A stretch of 5,820 bases of DNA from a virus (Duplodnaviria > Heunggongvirae > Uroviricota > Caudoviricetes), in IMG/VR virus record IMGVR_UViG_2802429250_000001. One strand, 5' to 3'. A model generated the notes under the pieces. That model was not told where the DNA came from and searched no databases. It worked only from the letters and a program-made list of their open reading frames with translations. A program made the position numbers and the translations under genes. Shown piece after piece: positions 91 to 4,654 of this stretch (its first letter is position 1; every line of letters starts with the position of its first letter).

Positions 91-283
91 GCTGGTGGCG
101 CGACTGATGCGATTTTGTCAGGTCGCAAGGTGATGATCAATCTGATGTCTAATTTCGTTCTGGATAAAACAAAGGCGACCGCAGAGGGCCACCAGTGGGA
201 AAGCTACACACTTGAACACATCGCCAACAATGCCAGATTTGCGGCTGGTGGGCAATGTGATCAGTGTGCTGGCTTGCTGGTGG
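91..283 (+). other. Cluster of three co-oriented Chi octamers (5'-GCTGGTGG-3') at 91-98, 244-251 and 276-283
   Basis: Exact octamers read directly on the + strand; the surrounding 1-542 region has no convincing ORF. Further single Chi octamers: + strand 4165-4172; - strand (CCACCAGC on +) 1310-1317 and 4994-5001. Confidence 0.7.
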
Positions 284-542
284 GCTATTCCTGCTCTTTA
301 ACATTGCCATGCCGCGATGTTTTCCAGGTATGCGACCCCATTTTTGTGCGCCTGTACTCTTTAAGGAATTTCTCAAGGATAAACGCACAGGGCGCGAATC
401 TGTCTGACTCATATTCGTACGCTATCTTTCTGCGCTGTCTTTTCCGTGCCGGTGATGGTGTATTGGTCGATTCTTTGTTGGTCATTCTGTGTACCTGTAA
501 AGCAATGCGCCGGAGTTCCTCACACCACGGCGATGATAGTTA

Positions 543-848
543 TTATTCTGATTCTTTGGCCTTGCGGCGCTGGAGTTCTTCACGTGCGACGGTGACGAGC
601 TGCCCGATCTCCTCGACAGCTTTGACTCCGATTTTTTCCACCTGCGCCAGTGCATTGAGCGAAGAAACCAGGGGATTTTCTCCGCTTCCTTCTGCCTGGC
701 GGCGGGCGATCTCACCACGCATGGCGGTTACTATGAATCCGGCGTTGCTTTCGCCGTCCAGTTTTACGGATTCCATGCCTTCAAAAGCATCATGTGGGAT
801 ACGAATTGAAATCTGTTTTGATTTGTCGTTGATAGTGTTTTTTGCCAT
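543..848 (-). CDS. Small DNA-binding regulator, ribbon-helix-helix (Arc/CopG-like) N-terminus, about 101 aa; likely repressor of the divergent operon
   Basis: ORF-track frame 543-887 trimmed to the ATG at 846-848, which sits 6 nt after GGAGA (rc of 855-859); an alternative ATG at 852-854 has no spacing. N-terminus KQISIRIPHDAFEGMESVKLDGESNAGFIVTAMRGEIARRQ fits a beta-strand / helix / G-x-S turn / helix pattern. Stop is TAA (rc of 543-545). Confidence 0.55.
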   Translation of the reverse strand: MAKNTINDKSKQISIRIPHDAFEGMESVKLDGESNAGFIVTAMRGEIARRQAEGSGENPLVSSLNALAQVEKIGVKAVEEIGQLVTVAREELQRRKAKESE

Positions 849-870
849 GTGCATTCTCCTAAACAAAAGA

Positions 871-946
871 TGTGATTCAGTATACACAAAAAAGAATCAC
901 AAAAAATACTTGACCTGTGATTCAGTTAAATTTAATTTAAATCACA
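871..946. promoter_or_regulatory. Divergent promoter/operator region: two inverted repeats TGTGATTC...(G/A)AATCACA at 871-901 and 917-946, overlapping candidate promoter elements
   Basis: TGTGATTCAG at 871-880 and 917-926; GAATCACA at 894-901 and AAATCACA at 939-946. Rightward -35-like TTGACC at 910-915 with an A/T-rich -10 candidate 17 bp downstream (TAATTT 933-938); another TATAAA at 961-966. Leftward -10-like TATACT (rc of 879-884) lies inside operator 1. No transcript start-site data. Confidence 0.45.
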
Positions 947-971
947 CCTCAGTAAGAGGATATAAACGACA

Positions 972-1005
972 ACGCCCCGAACTGTTTGCGGCAGTAGCGG
1001 GGCGT
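972..1005 (+). promoter_or_regulatory. GC-rich hairpin in the operon leader (ACGCCCCG / CGGGGCGT stem, 18-nt loop)
   Basis: 972-979 ACGCCCCG is the exact reverse complement of 998-1005 CGGGGCGT. The loop has a further CTG/CAG pair (982-984 / 992-994). No U-tract follows on either strand, so it is not a canonical intrinsic terminator. It sits about 30 nt upstream of the ORF1 start. Confidence 0.4.
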
Positions 1006-1035
1006 CTAACCAAACCGTTAAATGAGGTAACGATT

Positions 1036-1401
1036 ATGGCTGGGGCACAGCATACCCAAACTCACCCTAAATTTATATACACCTTCCTGGCGGTGCACCG
1101 TGATTGCATCGCTGACGGTAAAAATACTGTTCATGTAGCCGCCGATACGCTGGTTGATGCCTGCGAGATGCTCAATGACATGGGCTATATCTCGGCAACA
1201 TGGAAAGGGCGTGAAGAAAACACGTTGTTTATTCAGAAATGCGAAAACAATTTTATCTGGCGTTTTATCGCCCTGAGTACGGCACAACCGCGCGTGATTC
1301 ACATCGAGGCCACCAGCGAACAGGAAGCACGCCAGCAATCTCCTGATGGCTGCGTGATGGTATTCGCTGCCCGTATTCGCCAGGAGGTGGAGCATGTGTA
1401 A
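1036..1401 (+). CDS. Hypothetical protein, ORF1 (121 aa), first gene of the rightward operon
   Basis: ATG 1036-1038 preceded by GAGG (1024-1027) at 8-nt spacing; same frame as the spurious 31-1401 ORF. Stop TAA 1399-1401 overlaps the ORF2 start (ATGTGTAA). Confidence 0.55.
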   Translation: MAGAQHTQTHPKFIYTFLAVHRDCIADGKNTVHVAADTLVDACEMLNDMGYISATWKGREENTLFIQKCENNFIWRFIALSTAQPRVIHIEATSEQEARQQSPDGCVMVFAARIRQEVEHV

Positions 1402-4486: not shown

Positions 4487-4500
4487 ACTTATGGAATAAC

Positions 4501-4654
4501 TGTTCATCAAACTATTCACTGTTCACCTTTTTGATTATTTGTTGAGCTTTAAGGGTGAACAGTGGTGAACAGTTGGTGAATAGTTTTTGTGAAACTGTTC
4601 ACCCCTTAACACAATGAATTAAAAGGAGAAACGGAAAAGGTGAACAGGTGAAGG
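4501..4654. repeat. Iteron cluster, P4 ori/crr type: about 8 copies of TGTTCACC / GGTGAACA in both orientations
   Basis: TGTTCATC 4501-4508; TGTTCACC 4520-4527 and 4596-4603; GGTGAACA 4554-4561, 4564-4571 and 4639-4646; GGTGAATA 4575-4582; GGTGAAGG 4647-4654. The three copies at 4554-4582 are spaced 10-11 bp apart. Confidence 0.75.

Follow-up and report, generated by a model that had tools for sequence, protein, structure and literature searches.

The window analysed in this study is the whole 5,820-bp stretch of DNA, and chromosomal islands matching it were found in 1840 of the 5426 complete E. coli genomes searched. The best-covered match is locus L001 (APEC IMT5155), an element of about 14 kb at the tRNA-Thr gene adjoining proA. 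The genes of L001 are arranged as a rightward block (int, a hypothetical protein, a small AlpA-like HTH regulator and an AntA/AntB antirepressor), a leftward pair (a 66-aa ORF and a "YlcI/YnfO family protein"), and a second rightward block (an Icd-like gene, four small ORFs, DUF4222, a D5-type primase, ProQ/FinO and PerC). Judged by this layout, the element is a Gram-negative PICI-like satellite at tRNA-Thr. The int gene lies at the tRNA, an AlpA-type regulator is present (AlpA Pfam matches were obtained in sister loci), the primase module is followed by iterons, and the size is that of L001, about 14 kb; the definition used here also includes the absence of virion genes and a length of about 10–20 kb. 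The element is not P4, as the layout is instead PICI-like at tRNA-Thr.

The leftward pair of the window consists of the regulator gene (543–848, minus strand; 101 aa, YlcI/YnfO family) and, downstream of it, the 66-aa ORF (285–485, minus strand), which is also annotated in L001. The 66-aa product is very basic, and phrog_21027 is its sole match. This ORF is probably co-transcribed with the regulator, and a terminator-like hairpin with a T-run at 164–193 (minus strand) would end the leftward transcription unit. It is absent in three related loci (L014, L020, and L026), and elsewhere unrelated small ORFs take its place. At the other end of the window, seven copies of GGTGAACAG or its complement are found in both orientations at 4499–4648, directly downstream of the primase gene. 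This array is likely the iteron-type replication origin of the satellite, distinct from the operator-like repeats described below.

The regulator gene starts with an ATG at 848, and this start Met is common to all homologues. The Shine-Dalgarno sequence AGGAGA (855–860, complement), read from the sequence, is located 7 nt upstream of the ATG, and a CTCC-like motif is kept at this position in the stacked loci. The protein matched NCBIfam NF041551 (YlcI_YnfO_N) with 64.9 bits (cut-off 30, E 5e-18, residues 9–50), and RefSeq names the homologues likewise as YlcI/YnfO family. It also matched phrog_6522, a family of unknown function. No Pfam model, ribbon-helix-helix (RHH) families included, scored above threshold with the regulator. 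The sub-threshold Pfam matches of family members were scattered over PSK_trans_fac, RHH_1, TacA1, and CB_ParB_C, all of which are RHH, and RHH_1 was touched by only 2 of 53 members, at E 0.003; these searches thus do not support membership of the regulator in a curated RHH sequence family. Sequence and profile searches of the PDB with the regulator returned no RHH protein and no solved structure. We searched 1.84 billion cluster representatives exhaustively with a profile and obtained 72 hits at E ≤ 0.001, indicating a small family, and about half of these hits are 55–65 aa long and comprise the N-terminal domain alone.

We predicted the structure of the regulator using AlphaFold2. The full-length model had a pLDDT of 78, with residues 1–18 lacking regular structure and helices at 19–28, 35–53, and 59–100. 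The model of residues 1–56, based on a 53-sequence alignment, had a pLDDT of 91.7 and showed an extended N-terminus followed by helices at 19–28 and 35–54. The order strand, helix A, helix B within about 45 residues is the topology of RHH proteins, and G32-E33-S34 is located directly before helix B (35–54), where these proteins have a G-x-S/T/N turn. E33 is invariant in 24 full-length homologues, and G-E-S is also the consensus in the broader family alignment. A comparison of the profile with the Arc sequence by hhalign placed KQISIRIPHDAFEGM...DGES on PQFNLRWPREVLDLV...NGRS at a probability of 17%, so that the strand, R-x-P, helix A, and G-x-S are in register with Arc. With Mnt, hhalign aligned 14 columns at a probability of 1%. 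DSSP assigned no sheet in the monomer models, the dimer sheet lying outside a monomer prediction, and the N-terminal model gave no Foldseek match in the PDB, probably because the domain is too small as a monomer. The RHH fold of the N-terminal domain (residues 1–56; 681–848, minus strand) is well supported by these models. The first-pass annotation had described an RHH-like strand/helix/G-x-S/helix arrangement in the leftward protein, and the AlphaFold2 model of residues 1–56 and the alignment with Arc agree with that description.

Residues 59–100 (549–674, minus strand) are predicted to form one long helix and presumably serve as an oligomerisation domain. This helix has a heptad-like pattern, and L60, L64, L67, I73, G74, and R89 are invariant. 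Residues 45–86 also gave a weak profile match (E 0.01) to the helix-hairpin-helix of Hef (SSLxALxxVExIGxKAxEEI, which includes the invariant I73 and G74). We did not adopt a helix-hairpin-helix C-terminus because AlphaFold2 gives a continuous helix there, with a pLDDT near 90. In another int-AlpA-primase satellite (L032), a 61-aa relative that consists of the RHH domain only (P0136, 2501–2686) is encoded at the same position, and the gene caller placed a 195-aa ORF over it on the opposite strand. The same role may be filled by short YlcI/YnfO-type proteins that lack this helix.

The intergenic region between the regulator gene and the rightward operon contains two candidate operators, O1 (871–901) and O2 (916–946). 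O1 is composed of TGTGATTC at 871–878 and GAATCACA at 894–901, an 8-nt inverted repeat whose arms are 100% complementary and separated by 15 nt. In O2, TGTGATTC is found again at 916–923, and the fourth half-site, AAATCACA at 939–946, has one mismatch. The two operators are also direct repeats at a spacing of 45 bp, as TGTGATTCAGT at 871–881 is repeated at 916–926 and AATCACA at 895–901 is repeated at 940–946. From the arm positions and the direct repeats, the inverted repeats are centred at 886 and 931; the two copies about 45 bp apart that had been noticed earlier are thus real. The exact 8-mer occurs three times in the window on either strand, always within 871–923, against a chance expectation of about 0.18 exact copies (2 × 5820/4^8). 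These three are also the sole exact copies in the 23.9-kb related locus L001. A palindromic near-copy, CGTGATTCACA, with one mismatch per strand is present at 1293–1303 within the Icd-like gene and could be due to chance.

We assigned candidate promoters in both directions. The rightward promoter has a −35 element TTGACC (910–915, plus strand) and, 17 bp after it, a −10 element TAATTT (933–938, plus strand), which is weak and agrees with the consensus at 3 of 6 positions. Most of the 16 stacked loci have TTGACx in this column, and TAAnnT is conserved in its own. The leftward candidate −10 element TATACT (879–884, complement) is located in the centre of O1, where TAT(A/T)xT is conserved across the loci. 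No convincing −35 element accompanies it, so the leftward promoter is uncertain. A consensus promoter scanner reported neither of the divergent promoters; their assignment is therefore based on conservation. The first-pass annotation had the repeats overlapping the −35 and −10 of the rightward promoter and the −10 of the leftward one. This holds for the rightward spacer and −10, which fall inside O2 together with the putative start, and for the leftward −10, which O1 overlaps; the rightward −35, in contrast, sits between the repeats and abuts the second from outside, so that it is flanked and not covered.

The leader of the rightward operon contains two predicted RNA structures. The first is a stem-loop at 972–1005 (plus strand; outer arms 972–979/998–1005, inner arms 981–984/992–995), followed by a near-invariant CUAACCA at 1006–1012. 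Compensatory changes occur at 5 of its 12 pairs, and 87.7% of the cells are paired, compared with 22–44% for slid partners; the z-score of the leader MFE is −2.64. The second, obtained by both alifold and MFE folding, is a small hairpin CGTTA/TAACG (1016–1032, plus strand) that holds the Shine-Dalgarno sequence GAGG (1024–1027) in its loop. In other loci its arms are TGTAA/TTACA and CATTA/TAATG, which are compensatory changes. Both structures are conserved in all loci (the leaders of L002–L028, and also 2470–2540 of L022), and the lambdoid phage mEp460 has the same leader motif in a stretch without annotation. The leader matched no Rfam family; the best score was 19 bits with R1162 antisense RNA, for which the gathering score is 55.

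The Icd-like gene (1036–1401, plus strand; 121 aa, NF033153) is the first gene of the operon and has a conserved ATGGCT start. RefSeq places the start at 1180, giving 73 aa. The in-frame ATGGCT at 1036 has GAGG 8 nt before it; this start and the N-terminal sequence MAGxQHTQTHPKF are kept across genera and also in P4. At about 1045–1075 the DNA sequence itself is preserved, from E. coli to Xenorhabdus and in several phages (hits of 78% identity), perhaps owing to a constraint on the RNA.

We compared about 20 loci whose regulators are 44–96% identical. They come from at least nine genera (Escherichia, Edwardsiella, Klebsiella, Enterobacter, Serratia, Erwinia, Xenorhabdus, Photorhabdus, and Phytobacter), and Salmonella is also represented in the collection. 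The intergenic regions were stacked without gaps from the regulator start codon. In every locus the regulator diverges from the replication operon of an int-alpA element, whichever replication protein is encoded (D5 primase, DUF927-Toprim, or AAA_25). Most loci have four 8-bp sites at columns 26, 49, 71, and 94, with TTGACx at columns 65–70 (910–915 of the window) and TAAnnT at columns 88–93 (933–938 of the window). Four loci (L018, L019, L020, and L009) have a fifth half-site in the same register about 22 bp past O2, at column ~116. The window has no fifth half-site, and its sequence at 961–968 is TATAAACG.

The sequence of the half-site co-varied with residues 11–17 of the regulator, the predicted strand, and not with the remaining protein. 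KQISIRI or RQISIRI is accompanied by TGTGATTC (the window, Edwardsiella, and Klebsiella), QLTTVRV or QLFTVRV by TGTGTTTC (Xenorhabdus, Photorhabdus, Serratia, and E. coli), and QSLTARI by TGTAAGAC (Enterobacter and Klebsiella). QQ(L/I)NARF is found with TGG(G/T)ATTC (E. coli and Phytobacter), Q(L/M/V)KN(I/V)R(I/F) with GGTGTGTA (Erwinia, a record named Martelella alba, E. coli, and Salmonella), and EQRTVRI with a GTGAGTCA-like site in one locus (L028). Three sites were predicted blind from the strand sequence; the predictions agreed closely with the sites found in L025 and L026, and approximately in L027.

As the regulator and the operator are neighbours and are co-inherited, some of this co-variation is due to linkage. 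Linkage alone is insufficient because the head (residues 1–22) and the body (residues 23–101) are decoupled. The relative P0024, whose locus has TGTGTTTC, departs from the window protein at 13 of 22 head residues and 5 of 79 body residues. In P0066 and P0113, whose loci have TGTGATTC, 3–5 of 22 head residues and 25–30 of 79 body residues are changed. L020 and the window have nearly identical promoter elements and O1 spacers, and position 5 differs in all four sites. The sites of the GGTGTGTA class (L003, L005, L016, and L027) are oriented + + − − compared with + − + − at about the same spacing, indicating that the register is critical and the orientation is not. This suggests that one symmetric dimer binds one 8-bp site. 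Side chains of the β-strand would read the DNA, as is characteristic of RHH proteins, and the co-variation points to this indirectly. The reading of the repeats as operators is strengthened, as their position is kept across genera and their sequence changes together with the predicted β-strand.

EcCIMP1, an element at the same tRNA-Thr site, is mobilised by phage Kapi1 (PMC11773190). In E. coli MP1 (L029), EcCIMP1 has int, alpA, antA/B, Icd-like, and PerC genes and flanks similar to those described above. It has no YlcI/YnfO gene and no RHH cassette, and all its genes are in one orientation. The present element is therefore not EcCIMP1, despite the shared att site and the similar flanks. The RHH cassette is thus a modular addition and, as it is absent from an element that has been mobilised experimentally, is not essential to such elements.

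These comparisons, the strongest evidence obtained, indicate that the 101-aa protein is probably an RHH repressor of the replication operon that acts through the four sites and also regulates its own gene. Its function is most likely that of a repressor of the Arc/Mnt/NikR/omega type; we infer its binding, its oligomeric state, and the sign of regulation. RHH dimers would insert their two-stranded sheet (residues ~11–17, KQISIRI) into the major groove, one dimer per TGTGATTC, and the long C-terminal helix would join the dimers into tetramers or higher oligomers. The sites are 22–23 bp apart, about two helical turns, and would thus lie on roughly one face of the DNA. Occupancy of O2 would cover the spacer, the −10, and the putative start (~945), and would silence the replication operon, that is, the Icd-like gene, the small ORFs, DUF4222, and the D5-type primase. 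Autoregulation would follow from occupancy of O1, which would cover the −10 of the regulator's own promoter. At one of the two promoters the protein could instead be an activator, as Mnt is at its own promoter. Different satellites would have different reading heads with matching sites and hence separate 'immunity' specificities. Candidates for the inducing signal are speculative and include the satellite's AntA/B antirepressor, whose gene lies just upstream, a protein of the helper phage, by analogy with Stl, and rightward transcription driven by AlpA, which would cross the repressor cassette in antisense. A protein repressor of the early operon had already been proposed in the first-pass annotation. 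The operators and the co-variation of head and site support that proposal, and we infer the repression itself.

We considered three other explanations. In the first, the RHH protein binds the sites and is mainly an activator or architectural factor, or a centromere binder of the omega/ParG type. Against a mainly activating role, O2 lies over the spacer, −10, and start of a promoter with a good −35, which is a repressing position. Against a centromere binder, no partition ATPase was found in the element, and the element is chromosomally integrated. We therefore regard this explanation as unlikely.

It is less probable still that the repeats are bound by another factor, such as the AlpA-like HTH protein, the primase (as iterons), the product of the first ORF, or host CRP. 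TGTGA is a CRP half-site, and CRP sites have a spacing of N6. The arrangement here is TGTGA-N21-TCACA, which does not fit N6, and the other site classes have no TGTGA; CRP sites were thus ruled out. In favour of AlpA, this protein is a known activator of Gram-negative PICIs (PMC6092414). However, the site follows the RHH head across five classes, and predictions made from the head agreed with the sites found. The N-terminus of the first ORF, moreover, is nearly the same in loci with different sites, and separate iterons (GGTGAACAG at 4499–4648) lie after the primase gene.

In the least probable explanation, the regulator would be an RHH antitoxin with the 66-aa ORF (285–485) as its toxin, and the repeats would serve only to autoregulate this toxin-antitoxin pair. 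We dropped it because the downstream ORF matches no toxin family and is missing or exchanged in related loci where the regulator and its sites are retained, so that no cognate toxin is conserved. In addition, two of the four sites cover the promoter of the divergent operon and not that of the regulator, and the predicted long C-terminal helix is conserved in all loci whatever gene lies downstream.

An RHH repressor acting on divergent promoters is a regulatory device familiar in kind. Gram-negative satellites still lack an identified repressor, for which the regulator is a good candidate, and the module is carried by 654 of the 5426 complete E. coli genomes and occurs in at least nine genera. 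In the literature searched, YlcI/YnfO proteins are given no function and no RHH repressor is described for PICIs, and a 2026 survey lists the "YlcI/YnfO family protein" merely as an accessory gene of cf-PICIs (PMC13612085). With a defined set of repressor, operators, and promoters, the quiescence and induction of the satellite become directly testable. The correspondence of heads and sites, with about 5–6 classes that are a few residues and a few bp apart, is a natural data set on RHH recognition and a ready source of orthogonal repressor-operator pairs.

More tentatively, the YlcI/YnfO RHH cassette might be the not-yet-identified, Stl-equivalent master repressor of a large subset of Gram-negative PICIs and cf-PICIs, with at least six immunity groups and exchangeable heads, and repression might be lifted by an antirepressor from the helper or the satellite or by AlpA-driven antisense transcription. 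The leader, with its tRNA-minihelix-like hairpin, ACCA, and Shine-Dalgarno sequence in a hairpin loop, would in that case be a second, RNA-level control replacing the CI RNA of P4. We hold this extended scheme to be possible, at odds clearly below even.

P4 immunity is based on the CI RNA (C4 family) and its seqA/seqC targets, whereas the element described here has a putative protein repressor and operators instead. The controlled operon is equivalent, as the ORF after the CI RNA gene of P4 (MATTLTPSHPEF...) is homologous to the first ORF of the window (MAGAQHTQTHPKF...). We searched Rfam for C4, isrK, and c4-a1b1 and obtained no hit in the window at E ≤ 1 and none in 850–1250 at E ≤ 10. The same search of P4 as a positive control gave hits at 8420–8705, with C4 at 74.9 bits (8420–8507) and c4-a1b1 at 44.1 bits; an isrK-like element and a c4-a1b1 target were thereby located upstream of the CI RNA. 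With P4 as the control, a C4/CI-like leader RNA was ruled out, and the control logic differs from that of P4, as the first-pass annotation had anticipated. The conserved leader may be a processing, stability, or translational-control element at the place where P4 has its CI RNA. In the P4 record (L024), a CDS of 137 aa labelled 'cI gene product, transcriptional repressor' (8168–8584) overlaps the CI RNA gene. The PHROG label 'transcriptional repressor' for Icd-like proteins (phrog_6196 and phrog_1743) seems to stem from this old annotation of P4 cI and is therefore no argument for repression by the Icd-like protein.

Compared with the regulator, a 101-aa RHH protein for which no helper partner is known, the Stl repressors are larger, of the HTH type, and linked to helper proteins. 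The position of the gene is shared, since Stl/Rpr, the master repressor of Gram-positive PICIs (SaPIs), is likewise encoded leftward and diverges from the replication operon (PMC6092414).

Among RHH proteins, Mnt and Arc of P22 immI show no significant sequence similarity to the regulator; their sites consist of two half-sites about one helical turn apart, compared with four at 22–23 bp here. Omega of pSM19035 binds WATCACW heptads, direct or inverted, that are contiguous, unlike the sites here with their spacing of 22–23 bp. It has a partition role, which the regulator does not have, and the two proteins share no sequence homology. NikR binds GTATGA-N16-TCATAC as an RHH tetramer and has a metal-binding ACT-like domain, whereas in the regulator the operator is duplicated and a single predicted long C-terminal helix is present without such a domain. 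The half-sites of the NikR operator are about 22 bp apart, and it is this geometry that the sites found here, at 22–23 bp, resemble.
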